Source of the DNA: a virus
DNA: 64,000 nucleotides
Strand: one strand, 5' to 3'
Virus record (IMG/VR): IMGVR_UViG_3300036781_000418
Span: 219,296 to 283,295 of that record
In this document: positions 22,437 through 44,164 of the stretch, in pieces
Layout of the letters: every line of letters starts with the position of its first letter
Numbering within the stretch: the stretch's first letter is position 1
Position numbers and translations under genes: made by a program
The notes under the pieces: generated by a model
Databases searched by the model: none
Told to the model about the DNA's origin: nothing
Seen by the model: the letters and a program-made list of their open reading frames with translations, nothing else

Positions 22437-23540
22437 ATGGAACGATACCTGGTCGGCGGTGCAGTCCGCGACGCGCTGATGAACGTGACACCAAAAGACC
22501 GTGACTGGGTCCTTGTCGGCGCTACGCAGCAGGACATTGACGACATGGTCAAGGAAGGGTACCAGTGGGTTGGTGCCGACTTCCCCGTGCTGATCCACCC
22601 AAAAACGAAAGAGGAGCACGCCCTCGCCCGAGTCGAACGTAAAGTCGGCCATGGCTACAACGGCTTTGAGGTGGACACGGAGGGCGTCACCCTCGAGCAG
22701 GACCTGGCACGTCGCGACCTGACCATCAACGCGATGGCTTGGGACACGAGCCCATCGATGGTGTACGAAGACGACATCATCGACCCGTACGGCGGTCGCA
22801 ATGACATCAAGCACAAGATCATCCGTCACACGACGATGGCCTTCGTTGAAGATCCGCTCCGAGCCCTGCGTGTCGCGCGCTTCGCCGCCCGCCTCAGCTT
22901 CAGCGTCCACCCCACCACACACGACCTCATCAAGCACATGGGAACGTCCGGTGAACTGGAACACCTGACCGACGAACGTGTCTGGGCCGAGGTGAAGAAG
23001 GGCCTAAGCGGTCCGCACCCCACCGTCTTCATGTACCAGCTCTACAACCTCGGCATCATCAAGCACTGCGCAGTACTGCGTGAGGTCTTTCCATGGACCT
23101 ACGAGTTCGTCGCCTACGGCGTGACGAAGTACCTGCGCATGGTCAAGGAGGAAGATCGCTTCGAACTGGGCCTGGCCTGCATGATGGCGTGTGGTGACGT
23201 TGAAAAGATCAAGGCCATTCCGTCCAGGACGAAGAAGGTCTACAACAACATCGGCTACCTGAACGAGATCCATGACTGGTCAAACGTGGCGGCCGACAAG
23301 TTGGTGACGGTCATCACGAAGATCGGCGGCCTACGTGAAGGCACGATGTTTGACGACATCGTCACCTGCCTCCAGCTGACGAAGCCAACGCAGATCGAGA
23401 TCATCGACATCTTGACGGCCAGCCGCATGGTGATGCAGCAAGTTCGAGCCGACCAGTTCCCAGACCTTGAAGGCCAAGCGCTCGGGGCCGCGATGATCCA
23501 AGAACGTGCGAAGCGCGTTGCTGAGCTGTTGTTACAATAA
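22437..23540 (+). CDS. cca: tRNA nucleotidyltransferase (CCA-adding enzyme, class II)
   Basis: [11 protein letters not shown] (GGxVRD), [26 protein letters not shown]. Confidence 0.8.
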
Positions 23541-23567
23541 CAACATCGACCACCTACAAGGAAAGCA

Positions 23568-23816
23568 ATGTCCCGCAACAGCAAAGGTTACCGCACCGTC
23601 GCTCGCCGCAAGGCCAACACACTGGCCCGTAAGAACGGCAACCCAGGACCGGCAAAGACGATGCCGCAGCACGGCAAGCGCTGGACCTACCGCCACAACC
23701 CCGAAGTCGCGAAGCGCGTCGCGGAAATGATCAAGGCGACGGCGGTCGCCGATCGCCAAGCCAAGACCTCCGGCAAGGCGCTCCTCGCCAAGGCCGGTGG
23801 CGCATCGAAGGAGTAA
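23568..23816 (+). CDS. basic hypothetical protein (82 aa)
   Basis: ORF track. Confidence 0.5.
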   Translation: MSRNSKGYRTVARRKANTLARKNGNPGPAKTMPQHGKRWTYRHNPEVAKRVAEMIKATAVADRQAKTSGKALLAKAGGASKE

Positions 23817-23819
23817 TCC

Positions 23820-24320
23820 ATGGAAGCCAAGGTCATCGACTCGAAGACGCTTCGACGTCTTGTGTACTACTACGGGCCATGGCACGAGTACCGTGACACG
23901 GTGTGGAGCGACGAAGAGCACACGTGGGTCGCAACGGGCACCAAGTACACTCGTGACACCGACATCTGCGACCTCTTCGGCGCGATCTGCAAGGCCTTGC
24001 TGAACATCAGCATGTTGATGCTCATGCTTTCCGTCGCGGCCTTCGTACTCGGTGACCTTGGTGCTTGGGTTCTGGCTGCCGTTCAAGCACACCACTGGAT
24101 CGAAGTAGGTCCAGGCTTCGTGGTGGTCTCTGTCATGTTGGCGATGATCGCGTTTCTTGCCGTCATCATGGGCATCTACTACGGCGGCAACTGGCTGATT
24201 AAGAAGATTGACGAACGTCGTGGCCGTAAGGCCGTGGCGTCAGGTGTCAACTACATGACGATCGGCGACGCCTGGAAAGCATGGCGCGAGAAGTACTGCT
24301 TCAAGTTGGAGATCCGCTGA
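23820..24320 (+). CDS. membrane protein (166 aa)
   Basis: ORF track; TM helices. Confidence 0.5.
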   Translation: MEAKVIDSKTLRRLVYYYGPWHEYRDTVWSDEEHTWVATGTKYTRDTDICDLFGAICKALLNISMLMLMLSVAAFVLGDLGAWVLAAVQAHHWIEVGPGFVVVSVMLAMIAFLAVIMGIYYGGNWLIKKIDERRGRKAVASGVNYMTIGDAWKAWREKYCFKLEIR

Positions 24321-24709
24321 TGTTCGCCGTCCTCACCCTGTTGACGCTGCTGCAGCTCAAGCACTTCATCATCGACTTTCCAATGCAGGGTCCGTTCCAG
24401 TACTTGAACAAGGGAACGTACGGTCACCCAGGCGGCCTGCTCCACGCGCTCAACCACGGCATCGGCACCCTGTTGGCGCTGTGCGGTCTCAGTCTCTTCG
24501 GAGTTCACGTCGCGCTGGTGACGGTGGTGTGGTTGTTCCTGTTCGACATGGTGATTCACTACCACATCGACTGGGCCAAGATGAGCCTCAACAAGAAGCT
24601 TGGCTGGGGACCGACGACGCATGAAGAGTTCTGGTGGCTCCTTGGTCTTGACCAGCTCCTCCACCAACTGACCTACCTCCTGATCGTTTACCTGGCACTT
24701 GCACCATGA
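24320..24709 (+). CDS. membrane protein (129 aa)
   Basis: ATGA overlap; TM helices. Confidence 0.5.
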   Translation: MFAVLTLLTLLQLKHFIIDFPMQGPFQYLNKGTYGHPGGLLHALNHGIGTLLALCGLSLFGVHVALVTVVWLFLFDMVIHYHIDWAKMSLNKKLGWGPTTHEEFWWLLGLDQLLHQLTYLLIVYLALAP

Positions 24710-25209
24710 GCATTCCAAAGAAGTGTGACTTGAACTTCTTCATCGACTCGGACGGCGTCGTCGCTGACTTCGTCACGACGAAGCTGAAGTTGGGCATGAC
24801 GTCTGAACAGTTCAAGCACGAGCCCGGCGCCTACACGTACCTTGGCTTCATGCCCGGCGCTGAAGACGCACTGACACGGTTGAAGATGTACGACGACGCG
24901 AACATCGCCCGTGTTTGGATCGCCACCAAGACACCGGCTGGCGCACCGTACGCATACTCCGAGAAGGCGCTCTGGTACCGTTGGAACGCGCCATGGCTTG
25001 AGGACCGCGTGATTCTCATCCATGACAAGTCGCTGCTTGGTACGGAGAACGACGTGCTCGTCGACGACCGCGCCCACAAGGGCGGTTGTGAGCACTTCCG
25101 CGGCACGTTCATCAACTTCGGTTCGGATCAGTACCCCAACTGGTCAGTGGTTCTCCAGAAGCTGGAGGACATCATCATTCAACGTCAACAGGCAAAGGAT
25201 CAACCATGA
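24706..25209 (+). CDS. 5'(3')-deoxyribonucleotidase-like HAD hydrolase
   Basis: motif FFIDSDGVVADF (DxDGVxADF). Confidence 0.55.
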   Translation: MSIPKKCDLNFFIDSDGVVADFVTTKLKLGMTSEQFKHEPGAYTYLGFMPGAEDALTRLKMYDDANIARVWIATKTPAGAPYAYSEKALWYRWNAPWLEDRVILIHDKSLLGTENDVLVDDRAHKGGCEHFRGTFINFGSDQYPNWSVVLQKLEDIIIQRQQAKDQP

Positions 25210-25478: not shown

Positions 25479-25684
25479 CGTCCATTCTCCGCAAGATCGC
25501 GGTCGACCTCCTACACGGTCGACTTCCGCCTTCAGCTTCGGTGGAGTTGAAGGAGGAGCGTCTCAAGCTCTGTGAGGGCTGCGACAACTTCAAACCACTG
25601 GCTCGTCAGTGTGGTCTTTGCGGATGTTTCATGGACATCAAGGCCAAGCTCCTCGAAGCCACCTGTCCAATTGACCTATGGTGA
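25475..25684 (+). CDS. Cys-rich small protein (69 aa)
   Basis: CEGCDNF...CGLCGC. Confidence 0.45.
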   Translation: MTSILRKIAVDLLHGRLPPSASVELKEERLKLCEGCDNFKPLARQCGLCGCFMDIKAKLLEATCPIDLW

Positions 25685-25688
25685 CCCT

Positions 25689-26489
25689 ATGCACGTAAAC
25701 ATGAACACCCCTACCGCCGTGGAAACTCGTTCCGGCCTCTTCATCGACTTGGCTGATCCAGACCCAGCCACCATCCTGACGACCGATATCTTCTGGGCCC
25801 TGTCGCGCCAGCCACGCTTCGGTGGCGCCTCTACCTGCGAGGAGATCTACACGGTCGCCCAGCACTCCGTGCTTGCGGCCCACCTGGTCTACAACCTGCT
25901 CTTCAGCGGCTCCATCTTGGAGGACGCTCCGGTTTACCCCAGTGGTGGTAATACCGTGACCGGCGAGCTGTGGATGCGCTTCCGTCAGTTCGTAATGTAC
26001 AAGGTTGGCGAAGGTCGGGCCGATCACGTTGAGACCATCAAGACGATGGAGCTGTTCACGGCCCTGACTCAGGGCGCCCATGAACCCAAGCTGCGCGTCG
26101 TCTTGGAAGGCCTCCGCCACGACTGGGCCGAAGGTTACCTGATCGACTTGCCCACGCCGGTCAAGCGCTACCAAGGAGTTCGTGCCGCCTACGAGGAGCT
26201 CGAGCAGAAGGTCATGGGCGCGATCAACGCGCGCTACGACCTTGATGTCATCACCCCACACCTGCCGATCATGGACATCATGGTCAAGTGGGCCGACGAC
26301 CAGGCCTTGGCGATCGAGGCCGCGCAGTTCATTCCATCAGGTGGCATCGGCTGGATGGTGTGGTCGAAGCCCCTGCCGCCTGACTTGACCGTGGAGATGG
26401 AGGTCTGGGACGGAGTATGGGACCAGGTTGAAGCTCGCCGCCAGCTGACCGAGCTCAACGGACACCTGATGCGTCAGTACCACGCGTAA
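25689..26489 (+). CDS. hypothetical protein, possible HD-domain hydrolase (YfbR-like)
   Basis: start at MHVNMNT; weak YTVAQHS...H pattern. Confidence 0.45.
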   Translation: MHVNMNTPTAVETRSGLFIDLADPDPATILTTDIFWALSRQPRFGGASTCEEIYTVAQHSVLAAHLVYNLLFSGSILEDAPVYPSGGNTVTGELWMRFRQFVMYKVGEGRADHVETIKTMELFTALTQGAHEPKLRVVLEGLRHDWAEGYLIDLPTPVKRYQGVRAAYEELEQKVMGAINARYDLDVITPHLPIMDIMVKWADDQALAIEAAQFIPSGGIGWMVWSKPLPPDLTVEMEVWDGVWDQVEARRQLTELNGHLMRQYHA

Positions 26490-27807: not shown

Positions 27808-28428
27808 GTGCCTAATGAGGCAGCATCGTTTGGAGAACCTGTGACTAAGATTCTGTACGTGTACGAACATGAGTTGGAGCTTGACGTTGGATTTGAGCTC
27901 CTGAAGCTGGAGCGGTTGGAACGCTACGCGTTCGTCGGTCAGCGCTGTGGATCCCCATCTGGCCGCGCCCTGTTCGCCAGCCTGCGAGACGAGCCGGCGA
28001 TCCGCTGTTTCAACTGCGGCCTGAAGGCCAGCGTTTGGATCGTGGACCGCTCCGCGAACGAGCAGTACCCTAACCGACAGCAGGGCGTCATAAATCGTCG
28101 GATGAACCTCTTCGGCCGGAACGCTGAAGGCGAGCTGGTGATGATGACCCAGGACCACATCATCCCAGTATCCAAGGGTGGTTTCACGGTCCTCGAGAAC
28201 TTGCGTCCCGCGTGTGAGCGCTGTAACTCACGACGTGGGAACACGATGAACGCGAACGATCTAAAATTCATGAAGCAGCACCCACACCTGCACCTTCATG
28301 GTAAGGTCAAGAAAGGCAAGAAGCGGCATGCGCCAAGACATGAACAAGCTCCTGACGGAACGGGAGCGCCAACACTCGCACGCGAAGTACCGTGCAATCC
28401 GTCACACGAAGTACAACTCGCTGCTTAA
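27808..28428 (+). CDS. HNH endonuclease
   Basis: QDHIIPVSKGG...N...CERCNSRRGN; GTG start per track. Confidence 0.6.
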   Translation: MPNEAASFGEPVTKILYVYEHELELDVGFELLKLERLERYAFVGQRCGSPSGRALFASLRDEPAIRCFNCGLKASVWIVDRSANEQYPNRQQGVINRRMNLFGRNAEGELVMMTQDHIIPVSKGGFTVLENLRPACERCNSRRGNTMNANDLKFMKQHPHLHLHGKVKKGKKRHAPRHEQAPDGTGAPTLAREVPCNPSHEVQLAA

Positions 28429-31541: not shown

Positions 31542-31766
31542 ATGTACCTGCACACGATCGACGAACCCCGCTCCAAGGCCTTCTTCCGCGGTCGCCTGAC
31601 CAAGGTGGAGGAGATCCAGATTCGTGCCGCCTCGGAGGCCGGGTTGGAGAGCATGATCGACACCCACTTCTCGGCGGACCGCATCACCATCGAGACCCTC
31701 AAGGAGGTCAAGGCCGACCTCCACGCCGAACTCGCCGCCTTCACCCAGACCAACTGGTGGAAGTGA
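31542..31766 (+). CDS. hypothetical protein (74 aa)
   Basis: ORF track. Confidence 0.45.
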   Translation: MYLHTIDEPRSKAFFRGRLTKVEEIQIRAASEAGLESMIDTHFSADRITIETLKEVKADLHAELAAFTQTNWWK

Positions 31767-32650
31767 TGTCCGAGGACTCAATCCCATTGGAGTTTAGCAA
31801 AATGTCAACTGAACAAAAATCATCCGCCGTCATCGTGATCATCGGCGTCGTGGCGGTCCTTGGGGCCGTCGCCACCTTCCTCGTCTGGCTCTTGCTCATG
31901 ACCACCCTTACGGTGGAACCGGGCCATGAGCAGGTCATCGTGGACAAACCCTACTTCTTCGGCCATGAGGGCGTCCGCACTGAACCGCTGAAGGACGGCC
32001 GCATCACGGTGTGGCGCACCACCACGTCCTACGACGTGAACATGACGCCACAGTCCACCCACGTCGTCTTCGATGACTTCAGCTCGCACGACAACATCCT
32101 GTTGGACTTCGAGACGACGATCCAGTTCCGCTACACGAACTCAGTGACGCTCATCTCCAAGTTCGGCGAGGAGTGGTTCGCGAACAACGTGGGTCGTCAG
32201 TACGGCGCCATCGTCCGAGAAGCCGTGAAACGCCGCACGATGTCGGACATGATGTCGGACGTCGACACCGCCACGCAGTTGGACGCTGAGGTCACGCTCG
32301 CCTTGGAGAAGCACGTCAAGGACAACGGCCTGCCCGTTCAAATCCTCGGCGTCTCCCTTGGCCGTGCCAAGCCGAACCCCAACGTCCTGGCGCAGATGAA
32401 CGAGACGGCGGCCCAGCAGCAACGCCAGAAGACCTTGGTCGCCGCGACGGCCGCTGAAGGTCAACGTGAGCTGGAGCAGGTGGCCAAGGCGAAGGCGGAC
32501 AACGCGTACCGCAACGCCATGAACTTGACCCCTGAGATGTTCATCCAGCTCGAGAAGATCAAGCGCTACTCGGACGCTTGCCAGAAACCCGGCAACGTGT
32601 GCGTGGTGGACGCGACGGGCAACACCAACGTGAACGTCGGCGTGAAGTAA
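31757..32650 (+). CDS. SPFH/band-7 (HflK/C-prohibitin-like) membrane protein
   Basis: N-terminal TM then TVEPGHEQVIVDKPYFFG and coiled-coil QQQRQKTLVAATAAEGQRELEQ. Confidence 0.6.
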   Translation: MEVMSEDSIPLEFSKMSTEQKSSAVIVIIGVVAVLGAVATFLVWLLLMTTLTVEPGHEQVIVDKPYFFGHEGVRTEPLKDGRITVWRTTTSYDVNMTPQSTHVVFDDFSSHDNILLDFETTIQFRYTNSVTLISKFGEEWFANNVGRQYGAIVREAVKRRTMSDMMSDVDTATQLDAEVTLALEKHVKDNGLPVQILGVSLGRAKPNPNVLAQMNETAAQQQRQKTLVAATAAEGQRELEQVAKAKADNAYRNAMNLTPEMFIQLEKIKRYSDACQKPGNVCVVDATGNTNVNVGVK

Positions 32651-33617: not shown

Positions 33618-33621
33618 TGGT

Positions 33622-34346: not shown

Positions 34347-34421
34347 GGGAGTATGGCGTAGTCGGAAACGTACTTGGCTCTTACCCATGTGTCCACGGTT
34401 CGAATCCGTGTGCTCCCACCA
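34347..34421 (+). tRNA. tRNA-Lys (CTT)
   Basis: acceptor gggagta/tgctccc, loop CTCTTAC, T-loop TTCGAAT, CCA. Confidence 0.7.
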
Positions 34422-34429
34422 TCCAACAT

Positions 34430-34504
34430 GCCTCCGTCGTCTAGTGGCTAGGACATTGCACTTTCACTGCAAGAAAGACGGATCGAAACCGTTCGGAGGC
34501 ACCA
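34430..34504 (+). tRNA. tRNA-Glu (TTC)
   Basis: acceptor gcctccg/cggaggc, loop CTTTCAC, CCA. Confidence 0.75.
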
Positions 34505-34548
34505 ACACTAAGGACGATGAAAGTCGCCCTTCTAAGTAGAATGAGCGT

Positions 34549-34776
34549 ATGAAGCTTCCATCTACACACCAAATCGGCGACAACGTCAACTACACCCTCA
34601 AGCAAGAGGGACCTTGCCGCCTTATCGTACCAGCCATCGTACGACGTGTCATCTTTACTGAAAGCAAGGTGATTTACGACCTTACTACAAAAGATAACGT
34701 CGTTCAAGAAGTTGATTCAGTTTGGATCAGCTCAGCGGAGATGGAGCAAGACAGTTCCCCAGTAGCACAGTGGTAG
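34549..34776 (+). CDS. hypothetical protein (75 aa)
   Basis: ORF track; 3' end overlaps tRNA-Asn by ~20 nt. Confidence 0.4.
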   Translation: MKLPSTHQIGDNVNYTLKQEGPCRLIVPAIVRRVIFTESKVIYDLTTKDNVVQEVDSVWISSAEMEQDSSPVAQW

Positions 34777-34831
34777 TTGCGCCTGACTGTTAATCAGGAT
34801 GTCGGTGGTTCGAGCCCATCCTGGGGAGCCA
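34756..34831 (+). tRNA. tRNA-Asn (GTT)
   Basis: acceptor tccccag/ctgggga, loop CTGTTAA, CCA. Confidence 0.75.
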
Positions 34832-34842
34832 ACAAGATTTAT

Positions 34843-34918
34843 GGGTCCGTAGCTCAGTGGTAGAGCGTCTGCCTGAAGAGCAGAGCGTCGTCGGTTCGAA
34901 TCCGACCGTGACCCACCA
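34843..34918 (+). tRNA. tRNA-Phe (GAA)
   Basis: D-arm tagctcagtggtagagc, loop CTGAAGA, T-loop TTCGAAT, CCA; one bulge in acceptor. Confidence 0.65.
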
Positions 34919-34919
34919 T

Positions 34920-34995
34920 GTGTCTCAAGCCAATCAGGTGATGGCGTCGGTCTGAAGAACCGAACAGTCCGGTTCAATTCCGGAGGGACACACCA
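34920..34995 (+). tRNA. tRNA-Phe (GAA), second divergent copy
   Basis: acceptor gtgtctc/gggacac, loop CTGAAGA, T-loop TTCAATT, CCA. Confidence 0.65.
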
Positions 34996-35004
34996 ATCCA
35001 ACAT

Positions 35005-35078
35005 GGAGCGTTGATATATGGGTATTATGCTTGACTGTCTATCAGGCCAAACGGGTTCGAGTCCCGTACGCTCCGCCA
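35005..35078 (+). tRNA. tRNA-Asp (GTC)
   Basis: acceptor ggagcgt/acgctcc, loop CTGTCTA, CCA. Confidence 0.75.
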
Positions 35079-35087
35079 ACTTACAAT

Positions 35088-35179
35088 TCCCTTGTACTCT
35101 AATGGTAAGAGACCTGGCTGTTAACCAGACGTAGTCCGTCTAGAACGGTATGGAGGTTCGAGTCCTTCCGAGGGAGCCA
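35088..35179 (+). tRNA. class II (long-arm) tRNA with anticodon loop CTGTTAA (reads GTT; Tyr-like scaffold)
   Basis: 92 nt; acceptor tcccttg/cgaggga; variable-arm hairpin ccgt-ctaga-acgg; T-arm; CCA. Confidence 0.6.
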
Positions 35180-35183
35180 ACAT

Positions 35184-35258
35184 GGTGCTGAAGCTGAATG
35201 GTTACGCAGCGGTCTCATAAGCCGTGTGTCGTGGGTTCGATTCCCACCTGCACCACCA
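35184..35258 (+). tRNA. tRNA-Met/Ile (CAT)
   Basis: loop CTCATAA, T-arm gtggg-TTCGATT-cccac, CCA. Confidence 0.65.
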
Positions 35259-35369
35259 GCATTTTAGACGCGCAACATCCTTGAGAATAATGGGTTGCTC
35301 CACCAAGGTAGAGGCAGGGGTTGCATACAAAAGCGTTGAAGGAACGACCGATAGGCCTTCACCAACAGT

Positions 35370-35443
35370 TGGGGTGTAGTGTAATGGAAGCACAACAGGC
35401 TTTGACCCTGTTAGCGTGGGATCGATACCCGCCGCCCCTGCCA
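35370..35443 (+). tRNA. tRNA-Gln (TTG)
   Basis: stem acagg/cctgt, loop CTTTGAC, CCA. Confidence 0.7.
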
Positions 35444-35472
35444 GATAAATATGAGGATCAACGAAAGCATCA

Positions 35473-35931
35473 ATGAACCTCACAAAACTTACCCAACTCA
35501 ATGAGTCGACTGACGCTGACCTACTTTCCAAGCTGGACAATGTGTGTAAGCTCTCCATTCAGATGGAGTTGAAGCCGATTAAGTTCGCCAAGAACACCTC
35601 CAATGAGGACAAAGCCGAGGCCACAAAGCTCGCCATTGATCACTACAAGTCACGACTGGACAACTTTTGGTTTGATTCCAGGGCGCTTACGTCAGGCGTA
35701 AACGGCATCAAGGCCTACATGGAAGAATGCTCAAAGCATGGATTTAAGTACGACGCTGCGGCTTGTGAAAAGTTGATCGGAGAGATGACGCATGCGAAGT
35801 TAGTTGGCGACCTTGCTTCAACCATCACCACGCACATTGCCCTTGCCGCCCAAGGCCGTACGAACCGCACTTGGGATTCAGATCAGCAAACTGCGGCGAT
35901 CCTTCTGATGAAGGTCGTCGGTATCAAATAA
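35473..35931 (+). CDS. hypothetical acidic protein, member of the MK[LI]xx[LI]xE[ST] N-terminus family
   Basis: paralog of 38620-39063 (N- and C-termini align). Confidence 0.5.
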   Translation: MNLTKLTQLNESTDADLLSKLDNVCKLSIQMELKPIKFAKNTSNEDKAEATKLAIDHYKSRLDNFWFDSRALTSGVNGIKAYMEECSKHGFKYDAAACEKLIGEMTHAKLVGDLASTITTHIALAAQGRTNRTWDSDQQTAAILLMKVVGIK

Positions 35932-35936
35932 ACAAA

Positions 35937-36007
35937 CTCACCGCCAAAGGAATGGTCCGAACGCTACGAACGTTTGGCAGGAGGTTCGAGTCCTCTCGGT
36001 GGGTCCA
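35937..36007 (+). tRNA. tRNA-Arg (ACG)-like with reduced D-arm
   Basis: acceptor ctcaccg/cggtggg, anticodon stem gaacg/cgttt with loop CTACGAA, T-arm, CCA; only 71 nt. Confidence 0.45.
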
Positions 36008-36015
36008 CCAACAAT

Positions 36016-36090
36016 GGCGTTCGTAGTGTAATGGTAGCACCAGAGACTGTGAATCTTTTAGTGCGGGTTCGAACCCCGTCGATCGCCCCA
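36016..36090 (+). tRNA. tRNA-His (GTG) with encoded G-1
   Basis: extra 5' G pairing with discriminator C, loop CTGTGAA, CCA. Confidence 0.8.
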
Positions 36091-36096
36091 ATTAAC

Positions 36097-36170
36097 GCGT
36101 TCGTGGTGTAATGACTGCATAACCGGCCGAAAGCTGGCAGGGCCTGGGTAGAGACCAGGCGAACGCACCA
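36097..36170 (+). tRNA. tRNA-like element / degenerate tRNA-His duplicate
   Basis: identical acceptor gcgttcg/cgaacgc and CCA, similar D-arm; anticodon and T regions replaced by non-canonical hairpins. Confidence 0.35.
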
Positions 36171-36242
36171 AAATTGACAACCGCTTTGGTTGACGGTTAT
36201 CTCATTTCCAGAATCCCCCGTCACCTGTTCTTTGTTGTCTAT

Positions 36243-36317
36243 GGCTGCCTAGCTCAGTGGTAGAGCAATGTCTTGATAAGGCATAGGTCGTTGGTCCGAT
36301 TCCAACGGTAGCCACCA
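36243..36317 (+). tRNA. tRNA-Ile (GAT)
   Basis: D-arm tagctcagtggtagagc, loop TTGATAA, T-loop TCCGATT, CCA. Confidence 0.75.
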
Positions 36318-36321
36318 AATT

Positions 36322-36395
36322 GCCTCTGTAATTCAATGGCAGAATACCGTGCTGATAACGCGGCTACGCAGGTTCGATTCCTGACGGAGGCACCA
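36322..36395 (+). tRNA. tRNA with GAT anticodon (second Ile-like, divergent)
   Basis: acceptor gcctctg/cggaggc, stem ccgtg/cgcgg, loop CTGATAA, CCA. Confidence 0.65.
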
Positions 36396-36406
36396 GCTAA
36401 ATAGTC

Positions 36407-36676
36407 ATGTACTCAATGGAGATCTACATGGCTGATACGACCACAACCCCTGCAACTGACCTTTCCACCGCGGTTGACTCCGCCGCCGTTCAGGCGATCG
36501 TGGACAAGAAGTTCTGGCAGTCGAAGACTTTTTGGGCCAACGTCATTCTCGCTGGAGCGATCCTCTTGCAGATGAAGACAGGCTTCTTGATCAGCCCAGA
36601 CCTACAAGGTCTCGCGATCACTGGTATCAACCTCGTGCTGCGTAAGTTCACGAGCGGAGCCGTCACGCTCTGGTAA
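36407..36676 (+). CDS. small membrane protein (89 aa)
   Basis: ORF track; TAAATAG box 13 nt upstream. Confidence 0.45.
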   Translation: MYSMEIYMADTTTTPATDLSTAVDSAAVQAIVDKKFWQSKTFWANVILAGAILLQMKTGFLISPDLQGLAITGINLVLRKFTSGAVTLW

Positions 36677-36684
36677 CAAACTGA

Positions 36685-36758
36685 TGGGACGTGGTGTAGT
36701 GGTAACATGTGGGGATCTGACCCCCTCGCCCTAGGTTCGATTCCTAGCGTCCTTGCCA
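36685..36758 (+). tRNA. tRNA-Gln (CTG)
   Basis: stem gggg/cccc, loop ATCTGAC, T-arm ctagg-TTCGATT-cctag, CCA. Confidence 0.65.
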
Positions 36759-36834
36759 AACAATGGGACCAATTCGGTCACTTGATTTTCGTTCCTTAAG
36801 AACCGTAAGTCATCGTTATCGTCCCGCCAACAAT

Positions 36835-36907
36835 GGAGCCTAAGCCTGATTGGTGAGGGTGCAGTATGATTGCTGTTAAGATGGAGTTCGAATCTCTATG
36901 GGCTCCC
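36835..36907 (+). tRNA. tRNA-like gene with irregular (6- or 8-nt) anticodon loop, no encoded CCA
   Basis: acceptor ggagcct/gggctcc, T-loop TTCGAAT; anticodon region gcagtatgattgctgt cannot form a 5-bp stem with a 7-nt loop. Confidence 0.4.
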
Positions 36908-37374
36908 CTAATCTGAAAGTGACTCTTGAGCCGGCTGGTAAGCGTGGCTTGAAGTTTCTGATCTACGCGGTAGTTAACGGACGTAAGCGTGAAGTTGGAT
37001 ACCTCAACTCCGCCGTCACTCGGAACATCACGAAGCATGAAGTACTCGCGGCTCACGATGACTACAAGCTCGTCAAGCGCATCTTCAAGCAGGTTCCGGA
37101 CGAGTACACGTTCAACTACTACTGGCTGCAGAAGCTCTTCGTCTACGAGGAGTACAGTGGTCTTGGTATTGGTTCAGCGGCCCTGCAAGTTTGGTTTACC
37201 AAGCTGCGATCGATCGCGATGGTGGCCTTGGAAGCCTATCCAATTGGGTACCGAACGAAGGTGGAGCTTGAACGGTTCTACCTCAAGAACAACTTCGTCG
37301 TGTTTCATCGACTGCGTCCAGCAGGAGAGCGACAACGGCGAGCAACGATGGCCATGACGTTCGTCAAGGCCTAA
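36898..37374 (+). CDS. GNAT-family N-acetyltransferase
   Basis: motif VYEEYSGLGIGSAAL; start may be the downstream GTG at 36919. Confidence 0.5.
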   Translation: MGSPNLKVTLEPAGKRGLKFLIYAVVNGRKREVGYLNSAVTRNITKHEVLAAHDDYKLVKRIFKQVPDEYTFNYYWLQKLFVYEEYSGLGIGSAALQVWFTKLRSIAMVALEAYPIGYRTKVELERFYLKNNFVVFHRLRPAGERQRRATMAMTFVKA

Positions 37375-37381
37375 CGAATAT

Positions 37382-37457
37382 GGGTGATTGGTGTAGTTGG
37401 CAGCATAGCGGTCTCCAAAACCGTTGGTCATGGGTTCGAGTCCCTGGTCGCCCGCCA
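37382..37457 (+). tRNA. tRNA-Trp (CCA)
   Basis: acceptor gggtgat/gtcgccc, loop CTCCAAA, CCA. Confidence 0.8.
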
Positions 37458-37514
37458 TATAGCTTTGAGTAAGCTTGCTAAATAGGAAGCAACAATTCCA
37501 TTTAGGAGTCTCTC

Positions 37515-37751
37515 ATGGCACTTCGCAACGTAACGGGCCCAGCCCTGCACAGCTTCACGACTGACGAGCTTACCGCGATCGTCGGCAACTACGGCCCATC
37601 GGGCACCATTGACGACGGCGCAATCGCTCCTGGTGCAATGGTTTGGAACACGGATGAGTCCGCAGTTTGGGTCTTTGACGGCACGACGTTCAGCGCCGTA
37701 GCCGCCGCTCCAGCTCCAGCTCCTTCGCCTGCACCGGCTCCATCGCCGTAA
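37515..37751 (+). CDS. small protein (78 aa) with C-terminal (A/S)P repeat
   Basis: ORF track; TAAATAG box upstream; APAPAPSPAPAPSP tail. Confidence 0.45.
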   Translation: MALRNVTGPALHSFTTDELTAIVGNYGPSGTIDDGAIAPGAMVWNTDESAVWVFDGTTFSAVAAAPAPAPSPAPAPSP

Positions 37752-37774
37752 TTCAGTCGTAGGCTGAAAACAAA

Positions 37775-37807
37775 GAAGGGGAACCGAGTGATCGGTTCCC
37801 CTTACTT
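37775..37807 (+). terminator. rho-independent terminator
   Basis: ggggaaccga-gtga-tcggttcccc followed by T-rich run. Confidence 0.65.
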
Positions 37808-38086
37808 ACTTCGCGGTGACCCTTGGTGGTACCCTACTTTCTGGAGCAGCCAGGAAAGCGGAAAGGTCGGCTGAGGTTCCACACAACTGAAAGGAATCGT
37901 TTACCGGTGACCAAAGTTCCGGCAAAACACGACACCTCAGCTGGCCGTGTTCCTATTTGCTTCTCTAAGCAAGTACATTTTACGCAGCGACGTCTTCGGA
38001 TAACACTGCACATTTCAGGTTTAAGAAAGGATGCATCATGATGATCAGCTCGACGCTTGATGCGTCTGGTAAACACACCTCCTAAT

Positions 38087-38160
38087 GGGGGTGTAGCTCA
38101 AGGGTAGAGCAGGTGGCTTTTAACCACCCGGCGAGGGTTCGATCCCCTCCACCCCTACCA
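38087..38160 (+). tRNA. tRNA-Lys (TTT)
   Basis: stem ggtgg/ccacc, loop CTTTTAA, T-loop TTCGATC, CCA. Confidence 0.8.
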
Positions 38161-38194
38161 AATCACGTAAATAGCTGACCATATTGGAGTCCCC

Positions 38195-38623
38195 ATGAAG
38201 CTCAGCACCATTTCCGAACTCATCGCCATCAACGAAGCGGCGCTTAAGATCAGCGATACCGGTTGGTACGTAATCGATCCGACCGTGCACGACGGCGATA
38301 ACCCGCACTACAAGAAGGCCGCTGGCCCGTACAGGACGCGTGAAGAGGCGAAGGAGTACGCCACTGGCAAGGACCAAGTTAAGTTCGGTCACATGGTCAA
38401 CAACGGCTTCATTGAGGTCGATGAACATGGCACCTCGAACGAAGGCTACGTCGCCGTTTCACAGGCGCTGGTCTACGTGAAGAAGGCGATTGGCGCCCTT
38501 GCTGAAAGCGAGAACGAAGTGAAGGAGCACCTTGAGATGCTTGGCTTTGACATCTCCTTCGACAACCTGCTTCAACAGCTGAACGACCTTGAGGAACACC
38601 TTAAGGACGCGTCGACAAAATGA
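38195..38623 (+). CDS. hypothetical acidic protein, MKLxxIxE N-terminus family member
   Basis: N-terminus MKLSTISELIAINEA; TAAATAG box upstream. Confidence 0.5.
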   Translation: MKLSTISELIAINEAALKISDTGWYVIDPTVHDGDNPHYKKAAGPYRTREEAKEYATGKDQVKFGHMVNNGFIEVDEHGTSNEGYVAVSQALVYVKKAIGALAESENEVKEHLEMLGFDISFDNLLQQLNDLEEHLKDASTK

Positions 38624-39063
38624 AACTGATTCAGCTGAATGAAAACCTTGACGAGGCGAAAATTGACGCCTTCATCAAGGCCTACAACGGCATTGAAGCG
38701 CCACTCGCTAAGAAGCTCAAGCCGAAAGGATCGCCTGAGATGATCAAGGCGGCCTTTGACCTTGCATTTGATCATCATCAACGAGATGAAGTTCTGGACT
38801 TTGATGACGCGGCGATGACACGTGGCATCAAGGGCATCGAAGCCGCCCTCAACGCGGCCAAGGAGTACAAGACGTCAATTGACGTCGCCGCTTGCACCAA
38901 GGCCTCCATGGAGCTGAGTCAGCTCCGAAACTTTGGCAAGCTGGCCACTGACGTCGGCAACGCCATGTTCGTCGCTTTGCAGGGACTGAACAACGAACAT
39001 TGGTCTAAGGATGATCAAGCCCAAGCCCTACTCGCCTGTAAGTCGGTAGGCATCAGTAAATAA
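38620..39063 (+). CDS. hypothetical protein, MKLxxLxE family, paralog of 35473-35931
   Basis: N-terminus MKLIQLNENLD; ATGA overlap. Confidence 0.55.
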   Translation: MKLIQLNENLDEAKIDAFIKAYNGIEAPLAKKLKPKGSPEMIKAAFDLAFDHHQRDEVLDFDDAAMTRGIKGIEAALNAAKEYKTSIDVAACTKASMELSQLRNFGKLATDVGNAMFVALQGLNNEHWSKDDQAQALLACKSVGISK

Positions 39064-39064
39064 T

Positions 39065-39140
39065 GCATCGTTGACCTGAGAGGTTAAGGACCCTCCTTAC
39101 AAGTGGGAATATGCTGGTTCGAGTCCAGCACGATGCACCA
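39065..39140 (+). tRNA. tRNA-Val (TAC)
   Basis: acceptor gcatcgt/acgatgc, loop CTTACAA, T-loop TTCGAGT, CCA; one U-U mismatch in anticodon stem. Confidence 0.65.
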
Positions 39141-39147
39141 TATAATA

Positions 39148-39223
39148 GCTCTGGAAGTGTTACAAGGTGGCATGACAGTTTCGTAATCTGTAGGACGCGG
39201 TTCGAGGCCGCGCCGGAGCACCA
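39148..39223 (+). tRNA. tRNA-Thr (CGT)
   Basis: acceptor gctctgg/ccggagc, loop TTCGTAA with a U-U at the stem closing pair, T-arm cgcgg-TTCGAGG-ccgcg, CCA. Confidence 0.6.
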
Positions 39224-39284
39224 AAATTCCCGGGAGGACGCGCAAGCGTCCTCCTATTTTCGCATCAACAACTGGAGAAAATCC

Positions 39285-39671
39285 ATGAACGCCGACTTCC
39301 ATTCTCGCTTTATCACCAACACGGACGACACAGGCCGTTTCATCGTGAGCTCACAGCGGACGGGTATTCGGTACTACGTGGAACCGGTCGTGACGGAGCA
39401 CACCCCTGAGTGGGGCTCCATCGATCCAGCCACCGGCAACCTTACCCACAAGAAGGGTGACGGCAAGTACCGTGGCGGTGTCTCACCGTCTGAGTCCATC
39501 GTGAACGAGGATGCGGTCAAGGTTGGTGTCTTCGCGAAGGTGCACGACCTTGGACGAGGCGTGTCACCACACCAGGCGATTGACTACCTCGACGCACAGT
39601 ACCCAACCGTCAACCCAGCGTATGAGCTCACCGCTGAGTTTATCGGCTCCATCGTCAACCCAGCCTACTAA
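39285..39671 (+). CDS. hypothetical protein (128 aa)
   Basis: start at MNADFHS; the track's upstream extension overlaps tRNAs and is rejected. Confidence 0.5.
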   Translation: MNADFHSRFITNTDDTGRFIVSSQRTGIRYYVEPVVTEHTPEWGSIDPATGNLTHKKGDGKYRGGVSPSESIVNEDAVKVGVFAKVHDLGRGVSPHQAIDYLDAQYPTVNPAYELTAEFIGSIVNPAY

Positions 39672-39679
39672 GGATTATC

Positions 39680-39901
39680 ATGGCTACCCTCAAGGACCTC
39701 GTTGGTCCGGACAAGACCGTCCACTTTCAATTCTATCGTAAGGGTGCGCTCTACTATCGCACGTCAGACAACTTTGAATTCTTGGTGCCGATTGAGGACT
39801 GTGGTGACGCGGAATTTTTGGCAATGGACAAGGCTATGATGTTCATGCGGTACATTCGCAAACAGCTAGCCGTCAACGCTGAAGGCAGGGAGGCTGTATG
39901 A
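39680..39901 (+). CDS. hypothetical protein (73 aa)
   Basis: ORF track. Confidence 0.45.
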   Translation: MATLKDLVGPDKTVHFQFYRKGALYYRTSDNFEFLVPIEDCGDAEFLAMDKAMMFMRYIRKQLAVNAEGREAV

Positions 39902-40077
39902 ACGCCAAGAAGCTGGAAAAGAAGAAGCTCAAGCTCGCCGAGCGGATCAAGCAGCTGGAGGATGGGCTCGTCCTCTCCCTCCAGAAGAAGTCCTCCTCAG
40001 CAACCGAGATCGACATGCCTGGCACGATGCGCCAGATCCGAGAGCTGAAGGAAGAGCTGGACGAGCTAAATAGCTAA
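39898..40077 (+). CDS. small coiled-coil protein (59 aa)
   Basis: ATGA overlap; Lys/Glu/Leu heptads; below track cutoff. Confidence 0.35.
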   Translation: MNAKKLEKKKLKLAERIKQLEDGLVLSLQKKSSSATEIDMPGTMRQIRELKEELDELNS

Positions 40078-40080
40078 CCA

Positions 40081-40155
40081 ACAATTTACGCTGTCATAGT
40101 GCTAGTGGAAACACACGTCTTTGGTAAGGACGGATCGAAGGTTCGATTCCTTCTG
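40081..40155 (+). tRNA. tRNA-Thr (GGT)
   Basis: acceptor gctgtca/tggcagc, loop TTGGTAA, CCA. Confidence 0.8.
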
Positions 40156-40159
40156 GCAG

Positions 40160-40504
40160 CACCACTCTATGTTCGTCACCATCCATGAACTGCTGAACGC
40201 AATCCAAGTGAACGAGTCTCGCTACTCGGACATGGTGGAGCAATGGTGCTCAACGAACCTTGAGTCCTTTAAGACCGCCACGGACGCCTACCTTGCGCTT
40301 CGCAAGTACGTGGACGAGACGAGCGTCTTGAAGAACTACCTCACGGCCACCTTTAAGGGCAGTGAGGTCCGAATTCAGAGGTACCTCATCGACATCCTTT
40401 CACAGATGGCCAAGGAGAAGAACCTCAGCGGCTACGGTGAGGTTGACCTAACACAGGCCAACTACAACCACAGCGCGTCAGGAAGCGCGTCAGCTTCCAT
40501 GTAA
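40160..40504 (+). CDS. hypothetical protein (114 aa)
   Basis: start at MFVTIHE just after the tRNA. Confidence 0.5.
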   Translation, partial: HHSMFVTIHELLNAIQVNESRYSDMVEQWCSTNLESFKTATDAYLALRKYVDETSVLKNYLTATFKGSEVRIQRYLIDILSQMAKEKNLSGYGEVDLTQANYNHSASGSASASM

Positions 40505-40511
40505 GGTCAAT

Positions 40512-40688: not shown

Positions 40689-41084
40689 ATGGAAGCGCTG
40701 AACCACAAGCAGGTTATCGTCCTGCGTAAGGACCTCAACATGCGTAAGGGCAAGCTGGTTGCACAGGGCGCGCACGCCTCAATGGCGGCGATCCTTAGCC
40801 AGGGCCAGGCCACCGACGTTGGTGACACCTTCACCATTCAGCTGGACGATCGCATGAAGGACTGGCTCCTAGGCTCCTTCAAGAAGATCACAGTCTCAGT
40901 AAACTCGGAGGAGGAGCTGCTGTCCCTGTACGAGCGAGCTAAAGGTTCAGGTCTGATCTGCTCACTGATCCTTGACTCTGGCCTGACCGAATTTGGTGGT
41001 CGCCCCACCTACACCGCGGTCGCCGTCGGTCCGGACGTAGCTGCGAAGGTCGACGTGCTCACCGGTGACCTTCCGCTGCTGTAG
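40689..41084 (+). CDS. peptidyl-tRNA hydrolase, PTH2 family
   Basis: VLRKDLNMRKGKLVAQGAHAS matches the PTH2 active-site region. Confidence 0.65.
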   Translation: MEALNHKQVIVLRKDLNMRKGKLVAQGAHASMAAILSQGQATDVGDTFTIQLDDRMKDWLLGSFKKITVSVNSEEELLSLYERAKGSGLICSLILDSGLTEFGGRPTYTAVAVGPDVAAKVDVLTGDLPLL

Positions 41085-41167
41085 GCGTAGCACCTTACAC
41101 CGTCGCCGAACGGTGTGCACTCGGTCAACCTCTACTCACGGTCCAACACCAACGTCCCGCTAACTTA

Positions 41168-41207
41168 AAATGGCAGCAACGCTTCGGCTTGCTGCCATTT
41201 TTGTTTT
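41168..41207 (+). terminator. rho-independent terminator
   Basis: atggcagcaa-cgcttcggc-ttgctgccat followed by TTTTGTTTT. Confidence 0.7.
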
Positions 41208-41220
41208 CTTGAGACCATAA

Positions 41221-41394
41221 TGGACCGCTCAAAATCTTACTACCGACTTAAACTGCGTCGAGATGAACTGTGGTGGCGTAACTCCGAGCCTCTGAACCTG
41301 CAGTGCGCCAATGATCGACTCTGGAGAAAGTTGAAGCTCAAGCCATTTTTCTTCGACTACAACGAGAAGACTGGGCCAGCATGAGCATCGCATA
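41221..41394 (+). CDS. small basic protein (57 aa)
   Basis: below track cutoff; low support. Confidence 0.25.
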
Positions 41395-41485
41395 ACATTG
41401 AAGCTTTAAGTCCGTCTCAGGTTCAGCAGGATCCGTGCAGATGCGCGTGTTATGATGTTCTGATCGGACATAACCCGGACCAGAT

Positions 41486-42004: not shown

Positions 42005-42336
42005 AGTTCGCCGAATTCATCATTCAGCCTCGACCACTGGGGTCAGCTGAGCTGGAGTTGAAGGCGGCGATCGAGGCGGATCCACGACTGGTGGTCACGA
42101 AGCTGCAGGTTCGGCGGCAGTACAAGACGGATCCGTTGTTTGTGCGTCGCCGCCTTCGTTACTACATGACTCGTACCCTACTGCTGGTGTACGAGTTCAT
42201 CTGTCCGTGTGGTGAAATTCAACGGGAGGTGAAGTCCCTGCCGTTCAACTGGCGTCACCCTGACACCTTGTCCGTGCTCTGCGCTAAGCTCAGTGCGAAC
42301 ACCTACCAACATCTTAAAGATGAAGGACTCGTATGA
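42001..42336 (+). CDS. hypothetical protein (111 aa)
   Basis: ATGA overlap. Confidence 0.5.
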   Translation: MKFAEFIIQPRPLGSAELELKAAIEADPRLVVTKLQVRRQYKTDPLFVRRRLRYYMTRTLLLVYEFICPCGEIQREVKSLPFNWRHPDTLSVLCAKLSANTYQHLKDEGLV

Positions 42337-42575
42337 AGCATGATGATGCACCCCATAAACGATGGGAACCGAAGCCGGCCTACTTGTCCGGTCGGTTCCA
42401 TCGTCCCCCACGTGGCCTGATCACCAAGGCGCGTCATGGTGAAGACGGCGTGCCGTTCGACGCCCAGTTCTACTATGACAACCAGTGGTACCACGTCGAG
42501 GGCAAAACGAGAATCAAGCTCGTCGACGACCCTCGCGATCTTCAATGGCTCCAAACCCCTAACCAAGGAACCTGA
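42333..42575 (+). CDS. hypothetical protein (80 aa)
   Basis: ATGA overlap. Confidence 0.45.
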   Translation: MKHDDAPHKRWEPKPAYLSGRFHRPPRGLITKARHGEDGVPFDAQFYYDNQWYHVEGKTRIKLVDDPRDLQWLQTPNQGT

Positions 42576-42576
42576 C

Positions 42577-42819
42577 ATGAACGTCAACGCCCACTGTGAA
42601 CTGACCAAGGTGCTCTCCGAGATCATCCTTGAAGCCCACACCGCCTGCACCGACGCAGCCTCCACGTACGCCCACTTTGAAAAGGTGCAAGCCAACCCCG
42701 CCACCCGTATCGAAGGTCTCGAGATGTCCGAGGTCAAGACCTTTGCCGCCATCCTTGACTATGACGCGATCCGCGCCGACACCAAGGCGCTGTCCGACCT
42801 GATCATCACGGCGGGCTGA
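42577..42819 (+). CDS. hypothetical protein (80 aa)
   Basis: start at MNVNAHC. Confidence 0.45.
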   Translation: MNVNAHCELTKVLSEIILEAHTACTDAASTYAHFEKVQANPATRIEGLEMSEVKTFAAILDYDAIRADTKALSDLIITAG

Positions 42820-43116
42820 TTGATGCCGCACTTCACCACCTTGATCTTTGGCACGGGCAACGTTGAAGCGAACCGAGAACTTGATCGGCTTCGGGCACTG
42901 GATTGCTGGGTGTCGGGTGAAGTGCAGCCGACCAGCAATCGCCCACATGTGCATGTAGGCGTGTCGGCACAGGTGGAGCTGCCAGCCCATGGCTACTTCG
43001 TTGATGCCACCTTAACCTACCACGAGTTGGAGCTACGCGCCCAGGTCTTTCCAAATGGACAGATCATGAGCGTGCTGGTTCCAGTTGGTGCGACTGTATG
43101 CGGATATGGATCCTAA
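42820..43116 (+). CDS. hypothetical protein (98 aa)
   Basis: ORF track. Confidence 0.45.
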   Translation: MMPHFTTLIFGTGNVEANRELDRLRALDCWVSGEVQPTSNRPHVHVGVSAQVELPAHGYFVDATLTYHELELRAQVFPNGQIMSVLVPVGATVCGYGS

Positions 43117-44164
43117 GCTGCTAACGCGTGACGACTTCCGAGAGGGGGTCTTTAAACGCGACAACTACAAGTGCATCTTCTGCGGTAAATCCGCAGCTGA
43201 AACGCCTGAGGGCAAGCTCGACGCCCACCACATCCTTGAGCGTCGGCTTTGGCCGGACGGCGGTTATTATCTGGAGAACGGCGCGACCGTCTGTGAGGAG
43301 CACCACCTTGAATGCGAACGAACTATCAAGAGCGTGGAGGAAGTTAGAGCTCAATGCGGTGTATCCAAGATCTGGGTGCCACCGCACCTATACCCCGATC
43401 ATCTCTATGACAAGTGGGGAAATCCAGTCCTTGATGACGGCCGTCGCGGCCGTGGGGAACTCTATCACGATGAGTCTGTTCAAAAGGCTCTCGGAGCTGG
43501 AGGCGTCCTCGACCTCTTCACGTGGTATGTCAAGTACGAGCGGACGTTCCATCTCCCATGGAGTCCAGGACTCCATGACGACGACAAGGCCTTAAAGGAC
43601 TGCTCACAGTTCGAGGGTCAGCGCGTTATCGTGTCCTACAAAGCGGACGGCGAGAACACGACGGGTTACCATGACGGTCATATTCACGCACGGTCGATCG
43701 ACTCCCGTGGTGGTGAGGACCGAGCATGGGTGAAGAAGTTCCTGATTGAACAGGTGTGCTTCAACCTACCTGAAGGCTGGCGGATCTGCGGTGAAAACCT
43801 GTGGGCCGAGCACTCCATCCACTACGACGACCTGAAGTCGTACTTTTACGGGTTTAGTATCTGGAACGAGCGCAACACGTGCTTGTCCTGGGACGAAACG
43901 GTGGAGTGGTTCGAGCTGCTTAGCGTGACTCCGGTCGACGTCCTGTATGACGGTGTATGGGACGAAGCGCTGATCCGGAAAATGGCCTCGCAGGTTGACA
44001 CGGTAAAACACGAAGGTCTTGTGATAAGATTGGCTCGGAGCTTCACGTACGGTGACTTCCGGAAAAGTGTCGCGAAGTACGTCCGTGAAGGGCATGTGCA
44101 GACCACCAAGCACTGGCGTACGGGACGCGCGTTTGTTCCCAACGAACTGGAGCGAAAGCCATGA
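43085..44164 (+). CDS. HNH endonuclease fused to RNA ligase (Rnl2/RnlB-like nucleotidyltransferase)
   Basis: N-terminus CIFCGK...DAHHILERRLW...C..HH; C-terminus motif I SYKADGEN, motif IV HEGLVIRL, motif V-like RKSVAKYVRE. Confidence 0.6.
   Translation: MVRLYADMDPKLLTRDDFREGVFKRDNYKCIFCGKSAAETPEGKLDAHHILERRLWPDGGYYLENGATVCEEHHLECERTIKSVEEVRAQCGVSKIWVPPHLYPDHLYDKWGNPVLDDGRRGRGELYHDESVQKALGAGGVLDLFTWYVKYERTFHLPWSPGLHDDDKALKDCSQFEGQRVIVSYKADGENTTGYHDGHIHARSIDSRGGEDRAWVKKFLIEQVCFNLPEGWRICGENLWAEHSIHYDDLKSYFYGFSIWNERNTCLSWDETVEWFELLSVTPVDVLYDGVWDEALIRKMASQVDTVKHEGLVIRLARSFTYGDFRKSVAKYVREGHVQTTKHWRTGRAFVPNELERKP

Follow-up and report, generated by a model that had tools for sequence, protein, structure and literature searches.

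Phage T4 Pnk and Rnl1 repair tRNA that has been cut by the anticodon nuclease PrrC. A larger set of RNA repair and ribosome rescue genes has been described in jumbo phages of groups 2 and 3, comprising tRNAs, ligases, a CCA-adding enzyme, the peptidyl-tRNA hydrolase Pth2 and a HAD phosphatase of the SAK type, described as a stand-alone RNA-repair phosphatase; the fusion of an HNH nuclease with a ligase is mentioned in the same work (Iyer, Anantharaman, Krishnan, Burroughs & Aravind 2021; PMC7824862). Here, we analysed a stretch of 64,000 nucleotides of viral DNA, positions 219,296 to 283,295 of IMG/VR record IMGVR_UViG_3300036781_000418 (hereafter the window), which encodes such an HNH nuclease-RNA ligase fusion at 43106..44164 on the plus strand (352 residues). 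An initial annotation, made from the sequence alone, had proposed that a dispersed set of tRNA and RNA maintenance genes stands alongside the tRNA arrays of this DNA, and our profile and fold searches bear this out. Both the kit and the fusion are already catalogued in giant phages, and the window is a further example. It carries the same dispersed kit as the published set, from which it differs in nothing essential, and comes from a new, unisolated phage; RlaP, a kinase, RtcB and a 2H enzyme were searched for within the 64-kb window and not found. We consider it probable that the window carries a translation-maintenance and counter-defence kit typical of jumbo phages, in which the ligase seals broken tRNA or rRNA.

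Two bodies of work are useful for placing the fusion protein. A flanking domain is present in all RNA ligase families that have been characterised structurally, and these domains define the families; Rnl2, typified by T4 Rnl2, thus consists of an N-terminal nucleotidyltransferase (NTase) domain followed by a specific C-terminal domain (PMC7261155). The other concerns the HD-Pnk protein of Runella slithyformis. It is a proven end-healing enzyme with 2',3'-phosphoesterase and 5'-kinase activities, and a putative ligase open reading frame (ORF) overlaps the start of its gene (Munir & Shuman 2017, as described in PMC6097658).

The fusion gene most likely starts at the ATG at 43106 and not at the TTG at 43085 used initially, 21 nt too early, because the exact database copy of the protein and all of its homologues begin at the former. 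The protein comprises three parts. Residues 1-75 (43106..43330) form an HNH nuclease domain of the beta-beta-alpha-Me type, with the motif residues C23xxC26, D38-A-H41-H42, N58, C63, H66-H67 and C70. These align with the HNH motifs of IscB and include both the catalytic His/Asn residues and the CxxC...C..H/C zinc site. Residues 76-142 (43331..43531) constitute a linker module with KWG... and GEL..DESVQK motifs and columns that are invariant among homologues; it is missing from most stand-alone bacterial ligases, whose alignment begins at about residue 143. The remainder, residues 143-352 (43532..44161), is an ATP-dependent RNA ligase NTase domain without a C-terminal accessory domain. It harbours motif I (K179ADGEN), motif III (E230, in G229ENLW), motif IIIa (F247YGFS), motif IV (E303GLVIR) and motif V (K324). 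With these five motifs in order, the protein can be assigned, as far as its sequence goes, to the ATP-dependent polynucleotide ligase superfamily.

The initial annotation had read an HNH nuclease at the N-terminus and a ligase at the C-terminus of this protein, and the profiles, motifs and predicted fold all agree with that reading. The Pfam model RNA_ligase (PF09414) scores 86.3 bits (cut-off 27; E 3.6e-24; profile positions 2-171 of 171). The alignment with PHROG 24030, named 'RNA ligase', runs over the full length, pairing residues 4-349 with positions 2-341 of a profile of 342 positions (E 2.5e-137), and makes the protein a member of a catalogued HNH-ligase family. At least eight HNH PHROGs match residues 9-76 (E 2.6e-8 to 5.6e-4), and the NCBIfam IscB model matches with an E value of 2.7e-4, under its equivalog cut-off. 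The Pfam HNH models remained below threshold on the window protein and reached E values of ~0.005-0.008, likewise sub-threshold, on homologues only; the HNH assignment is thus based on the PHROGs, the fold and the motifs. The AlphaFold2 (AF2) model of the fusion has a pLDDT of 88.7 and a pTM of 0.82. It contains the HNH fold and places K179, the lysine of the KADG motif, inside a nucleotidyltransferase fold, as had been anticipated. The linker is modelled mostly as coil and short strands, with helices at residues 78-84 and 124-133.

In fold comparisons, the best match of the ligase domain is NgrRnl, an Rnl5 enzyme, with T4 Rnl2 level with it, and the nearest relatives of the HNH domain are McrA, Cap5, IscB and Cas9. 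HMMER searches against the sequences of the PDB retrieved no ligase, and the ligase relatives were recovered by fold comparison only. In 34 close homologues and 40 distant representatives, the residues of both active sites vary little or not at all. Conservation of the HNH domain equals that of the ligase domain, with a mean column identity of 74-77% among the close homologues, and its catalytic residues are kept in proteins of 39-57% identity.

Comparison with the known ligase families sets the window protein apart from both of its nearest structural relatives. Its NTase domain is C-terminal, with only 28 residues beyond motif V, and thus differs from the N-terminal NTase and specific C-terminal domain that define Rnl2; the NCBIfam Rnl2 and DRB0094 models gave no match at E<0.01. 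This departs from the 'Rnl2 family' assignment of PMC7824862, since our fold search puts NgrRnl and T4 Rnl2 on the same level. With the Rnl5 ligases, Naegleria NgrRnl and Deinococcus DraRnl, the window protein shares the C-terminal position of the NTase domain and the absence of a C-terminal accessory domain. In contrast, the N-terminal module of the Rnl5 enzymes is an OB-fold, whereas that of the window protein is the HNH domain plus linker, and HMMER found no sequence similarity between the window ligase and Rnl5 ligases. By the flanking-domain criterion, the window protein would therefore represent a distinct type of ligase. It is a more doubtful proposition, which we rate as rather unlikely, that it stands for a seventh type of ATP-dependent RNA ligase, with an active HNH domain and linker as a substrate-engaging module, that cuts or trims RNA and then reseals it.

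Fusions of this kind had been described as unusual, which our searches contradict. A word-indexed protein search returned 4821 homologues, the best 120 of which are all full length, with 66-81% identity. An exhaustive search of representatives at 50% identity yielded 447 clusters at E<=1e-30; of the top 150 representatives, about one third have the complete fusion and about as many consist of the ligase alone (~210 residues). The fusion has a PHROG of its own and a mention in the jumbo-phage literature (PMC7824862), and the HNH-ligase is matched over at least 80% of its length in 17 deposited phage records. Full-length fusions are present in Ralstonia phage RsoM2USA, in Caulobacter phages CcrSC and CcrBL9 and their relatives, in Salicola phage SCTP-2 and in Acinetobacter phage ME3, and also in the haloarchaeal virus HGTV-1. 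Only the ligase part is found in phages XacN1 and Atu_ph07. In a crude and poorly resolved neighbour-joining tree of the ligase domain, fused and stand-alone forms are intermixed, with about seven changes of state.

Some homologues have more complex architectures. Two of them, P0121 (713 residues) and P0129 (700 residues), carry inteins of ~350 residues with LAGLIDADG homing-endonuclease motifs right after ligase motif I (KMDGE|C...HN|C). In several other cluster representatives, 520-743 residues long, the alignment to the query is split into two blocks, so that they may be intein-bearing too. Finally, a ligase domain ~50% identical to that of the window protein is found inside the very large multidomain proteins P0209 (2792 residues), P0247 (1631 residues), P0259 (1723 residues) and P0269 (1859 residues).

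We determined the genetic context of stand-alone homologues in a survey of one genome per prokaryotic species, which gave 74 bacterial or archaeal loci whose ligases are 49-58% identical to the window protein across the ligase domain. In 64 of these loci, the ligase gene is followed on the same strand, after a median distance of 5 nt, by a gene for a protein of ~420 residues with HD and AAA_33 P-loop kinase domains. RtcB, an RF-1 domain protein (PrfH-like by context) and RlaP are recurrent neighbours. The position directly upstream of an HD and P-loop kinase gene is shared with the putative ligase of the Runella operon, a protein that is possibly related to the window ligase family. In contrast to the phage fusions, these bacterial ligases are devoid of the HNH domain and linker, and in nearly all phage loci HD-Pnk is not adjacent. 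None of six genome loci with a fused form has an adjacent HD-kinase gene, and one of 63 viral loci does, with a weak match.

One phage locus combines the two. In the uncultured 462-kb phage LR756500.1 (24505-26710, minus strand), the gene for a full-length HNH-ligase runs into the beginning of a co-oriented gene for an HD-Pnk homologue (E 2e-68), indicating that the two proteins can work side by side; an ORF for an AAA-type ATPase lies just upstream of the pair. This gene arrangement links the HNH-ligase fusion to heal-and-seal repair and weakens the idea that the fusion simply replaces HD-Pnk. An RNA-repair context of the ligase is thus supported by the operons with HD and kinase domains, by the RtcB, RF-1 and RlaP neighbours and by the LR756500.1 pair. 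A further association is with tRNA genes. Among 47 phage loci of at least 19 kb, at least three tRNAs are found within 10 kb of the HNH-ligase gene in 25 and at least eight in 19, counts that are inflated by relatedness among the loci. In the window, the ligase gene lies 3 kb beyond an island of 18-19 tRNAs, with the Pth2 gene in between. A relative with 75% identity has no repair genes as neighbours.

The six ORFs named in the initial annotation are all present on the plus strand with a coding-type GC3, and each has a significant match to a family, including the RNA ligase and PTH2 families for which profile searches had been proposed. The gene at 22437..23540 codes for a class II CCA-adding enzyme (tRNA nucleotidyltransferase) with head, neck and body but without the HD domain of Escherichia coli Cca. 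This assignment, as proposed, is backed by the Pfam PolyA_pol head (71.8 bits) and PolyA_pol_RNAbd models, by PHROG 2244 (E 2.9e-93) and by a score of 287 bits over the N-terminal 225 positions of NCBIfam Cca against 83 bits for PcnB. The protein stays under the Cca equivalog cut-off because the HD domain is absent. It has the GGAVRD, DRD, RRD and EDPLR motifs of class II enzymes, and its sequence is compatible with addition of the full CCA as well as with a partial (CC- or A-adding) specificity. Since the tRNA genes of the window already encode CCA, its role, going by what is established for CCA enzymes, would be repair of 3' ends rather than maturation. The Pth2-type peptidyl-tRNA hydrolase predicted at 40689..41084 is similarly clear, with full-length matches above both curated cut-offs (PF01981, E 3.4e-28, 98.6 bits against 23; TIGR00283, 101.3 bits against 82).

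Two HAD phosphatases, at 17450..18070 and 24706..25209, both on the plus strand, had been listed in the initial annotation as part of the toolkit, but an RNA-repair type is seen in one of them only. The former matches HAD_SAK_2 (PF18143, 58.7 bits against a cut-off of 27.5) and has a DVDGV motif I. HAD_SAK_2 is a family named by Aravind's group for RNA-repair 'Swiss army knife' proteins, and a HAD family other than that of the T4 Pnk phosphatase. The protein is a candidate RNA 3'-phosphatase, its substrate being predicted. In contrast, the latter is a member of the NT5C family of 5'(3')-deoxynucleotidases (PF06941, 27.3 bits; cut-off 24.8). As only one gene separates it from a gene of the HD dNMP-phosphatase type (25572-26489; PHROG 318, E 7e-30), we assign it to nucleotide metabolism and not to RNA repair. 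A metallophosphatase encoded at 20440-21507 was also considered as a Pnkp-type RNA phosphatase and rejected. It is a common protein phosphatase of the lambda NinI or PrpA type that occurs in 1148 phage records, and its match to PHROG 246 is confined to the phosphatase part.

The sixth ORF (9164..9898, plus strand) codes for a minimal catalytic core resembling class II aminoacyl-tRNA synthetases (aaRS). The class II core and the absence of an anticodon-binding domain stand as initially described, but the assignment to subclass IIb is not supported, as the best matches are to PheRS alpha and to a PHROG called 'histidyl tRNA synthetase' (PHROG 4806, E 8e-36). Its score is 22.8 bits with tRNA-synt_2d (cut-off 19.8) and 21.3 bits with tRNA-synt_2, under the cut-off of 25. 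The motif 2 'FRNE...H..F..E' aligns to PheRS alpha, and a motif-3-like 'GTGLAEPRF' is also present. Homologues of this family (~190-245 residues) occur in 185 phage records, where they are labelled variously as HisRS, SerRS, RNA polymerase alpha CTD or hypothetical. Directly downstream, and overlapping the end of this gene, 9822-10637 codes for a DNA/RNA non-specific endonuclease (Endonuclease_NS, E 1e-35).

ARAGORN called 27 tRNA genes in the window and Rfam 28. Island A (810..4072, plus strand) contains nine ARAGORN tRNAs and a weak Rfam match at 3495-3559 (31.5 bits). Island B (34347..40164, plus strand), which ends 3 kb upstream of the ligase gene, contains 18 ARAGORN tRNAs and one found by Rfam only, at 35184-35255, with a CAU anticodon and 53.5 bits. 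A solitary tRNA-Arg(CCU) gene (18223..18298, plus strand) directly follows the HAD_SAK_2 gene. The tRNA-Ser(CGA) called by ARAGORN at 3986-4072 was not reported by Rfam at the gathering threshold. The 3' CCA is encoded in all 27 ARAGORN-called genes, and the overlapping Rfam matches stop three bases before the ARAGORN ends. No tRNA-Tyr was found in the window.

Three of the tRNAs have long type-II-like variable arms together with anticodons that are usual for short-arm tRNAs. They are located at 1713-1798 (UGU, Thr, arm of 13 nt), 2329-2416 (CAU, Met/Ile, 12 nt) and 35088-35179 (GUU, Asn, 17-19 nt), and an ordinary tRNA-Asn(GUU) is also present at 34756-34831. The long-arm tRNAs could be identity-switched or mischarging tRNAs. 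We considered tRNA introns as a substrate for cutting and resealing and rejected them, as the extra length corresponds to long variable arms and the anticodon loops are intact.

The window is a fragment of a jumbo phage genome of ~340 kb, because an exact copy of the 352-residue HNH-ligase (P0001) lies on a metagenomic contig of 342,591 bp and close relatives lie on contigs of 330-375 kb. Its genes are mostly on the plus strand, with high GC3. No similar DNA was found among deposited phages. Judged by the ligase, the nearest isolate is Ralstonia phage RsoM2USA (62% identity), and synteny comparisons with this phage and with a 350-kb relative revealed nothing in common except the ligase. Other genes code for a tail fibre with an endosialidase-chaperone domain, a papain-family cysteine protease (14293-15180), an SPFH/Band 7 protein (31757-32650) and a DUF4419 protein (45650-46792, E 3.7e-38). 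Two phage proteins, encoded at 5612-6289 and 13311-14144, end in PEP-CTERM sorting motifs (E ~1e-5), which suggests that the host is Gram-negative and possesses an exosortase system.

How these components might work together can be outlined as follows. The ~28 phage tRNAs would provide the phage with a supply of its own, the CCA-adding enzyme would rebuild damaged tRNA 3' ends, and Pth2 would free tRNAs stuck as peptidyl-tRNA. The HAD_SAK phosphatase and the ATP-dependent RNA ligase would heal and seal tRNA or rRNA cut by host defence nucleases, with a healing kinase that is either encoded outside the window or dispensable. The domain identities, conserved active sites, genomic associations and encoded CCA ends are observed directly; the RNA substrate of the ligase and counter-defence as the purpose of the kit are what we infer. 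The analogy with T4 Pnk/Rnl countering host anticodon nucleases, drawn in the initial annotation, holds in part. The two systems would have in common a phage-encoded answer to host tRNA cleavage that combines a HAD-type phosphatase and an ATP-dependent ligase, but no 5'-OH polynucleotide kinase was found in the window. The break-and-reseal function suggested in the same annotation is hypothetical. In the sealing reaction, which would follow the usual three steps of such ligases, K179 would be adenylylated, AMP would be transferred onto the 5'-phosphate, and the 3'-OH would then attack.

As for the HNH domain, it would occupy, together with the linker, the place of the OB or helical accessory domain of other RNA ligase families. 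It would engage the ligase's own nucleic acid, cutting or trimming it to 5'-P and 3'-OH ends, and would not be an unrelated passenger. HNH chemistry leaves 5'-P and 3'-OH ends. We tentatively propose, as a possibility that may well prove wrong, that the HNH domain and linker are the flanking substrate module of the ligase on the same molecule. The proposal is based on an architecture that stays the same between proteobacterial phages and a haloarchaeal virus, on the conservation of the linker, on the pTM of the model, on the rule that RNA ligases have flanking domains, and on the precedent of PtuB, an HNH domain protein that cuts tRNA (cited in PMC12409363). Several observations weigh against this picture of a cutting and sealing RNA repair enzyme. 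The closest HNH folds are all those of DNA cutters, and the sole published suggestion is that the HNH domain attacks DNA independently (PMC7824862). The gene has no conserved neighbour in phages, the best neighbour family being found in eight of 72 loci, and the tRNA-proximity counts have the bias mentioned above. A 5' kinase was not detected in the 64-kb window by Pfam searches of ~60 ORFs, a Walker-A scan or an HD-Pnk profile. Lastly, the ligase-like protein of Runella, which would bear on the question if it is of the same family, is reported to have adenylylated itself and to have sealed none of the 3'-OH/5'-P substrates tried (PMC6097658).

That published suggestion (PMC7824862, section 3.4.9) leads to a different view, in which the polypeptide has two jobs: the ligase repairs RNA, the HNH domain independently cuts the DNA of the host or of superinfecting phages, and the fusion gives co-expression only. 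The DNA nucleases among the nearest folds are in keeping with it, and so is LR756500.1, where a complete HD-Pnk beside the fused gene makes the HNH domain unnecessary for end healing. Yet an opportunistic fusion should vary, whereas the architecture is fixed and the linker invariant across these distant viruses, and a DNA nuclease without regulation would put the phage genome itself at risk, with no immunity gene conserved alongside. We regard this view as possible but somewhat doubtful, and about equally likely as that of an HNH domain working with the ligase. If the HNH module instead took over end healing, by re-cutting damaged ends itself or by restricting the enzyme to resealing breaks made by metal-dependent nucleases, one could understand why an HD-kinase adjoins 64 of 74 stand-alone ligases and virtually none of the fused ones, and why no kinase was found in the window. 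LR756500.1, in which the fused gene overlaps that of an HD-Pnk homologue, speaks against such a replacement. Moreover, phage pathway genes are seldom kept together, so that missing adjacency is weak evidence, the window represents only 64 kb of the genome, and it encodes an RNA-repair-type HAD phosphatase. This explanation is thus unlikely.

Less probable still, in our estimation, is an enzyme of phage DNA metabolism that nicks and seals DNA or DNA-RNA hybrids, for instance at site-specific nicks or ribonucleotide patches. The nearest solved relatives, Rnl5 and Rnl2, do seal duplex nicks, and HNH nickases are common in phages. HD-Pnk also heals both DNA and RNA ends, according to the title of a cited paper. 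The bacterial neighbours RtcB, RF-1 domain protein and RlaP nonetheless point to RNA or the ribosome, and the phage copies cluster with tRNA islands and not with replication genes. Finally, the HNH domain might be a selfish homing endonuclease that joined a conserved ligase gene in frame by chance. Phages often carry free-standing HNH homing genes; the window itself has a free-standing HNH endonuclease gene at 27808-28428, and ligase homologues are targeted by mobile elements, as shown by the inteins in motif I. We disfavour this origin and consider it very improbable, because the HNH domain is conserved as strongly as the ligase, with its catalytic residues kept, is present in all of the best 120 of 4821 homologues and is joined to the ligase by a conserved linker specific to the family.

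Whatever the role of its HNH domain, few genes of this phage lineage are conserved as strongly as the HNH-ligase gene, which retains 62-81% identity between loci whose flanking genes have no detectable similarity, and it is abundant in metagenomes and targeted by inteins. If the HNH domain does act on the RNA that the ligase seals, the fusion would be a single-polypeptide enzyme for the repair or remodelling of tRNA or rRNA, which would either do without kinase and phosphatase healing or supplement it with a further step. Given that a possibly related stand-alone ligase failed to seal standard substrates, the phage fusion may also be useful for finding the real substrate of this clade of ligases. 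Defences that cleave tRNA, such as PrrC, RloC, VapC, PARIS and Retron-Eco7, are now viewed as a major arm of bacterial immunity, and phage tRNA islands and repair enzymes are the counter-measures to them.

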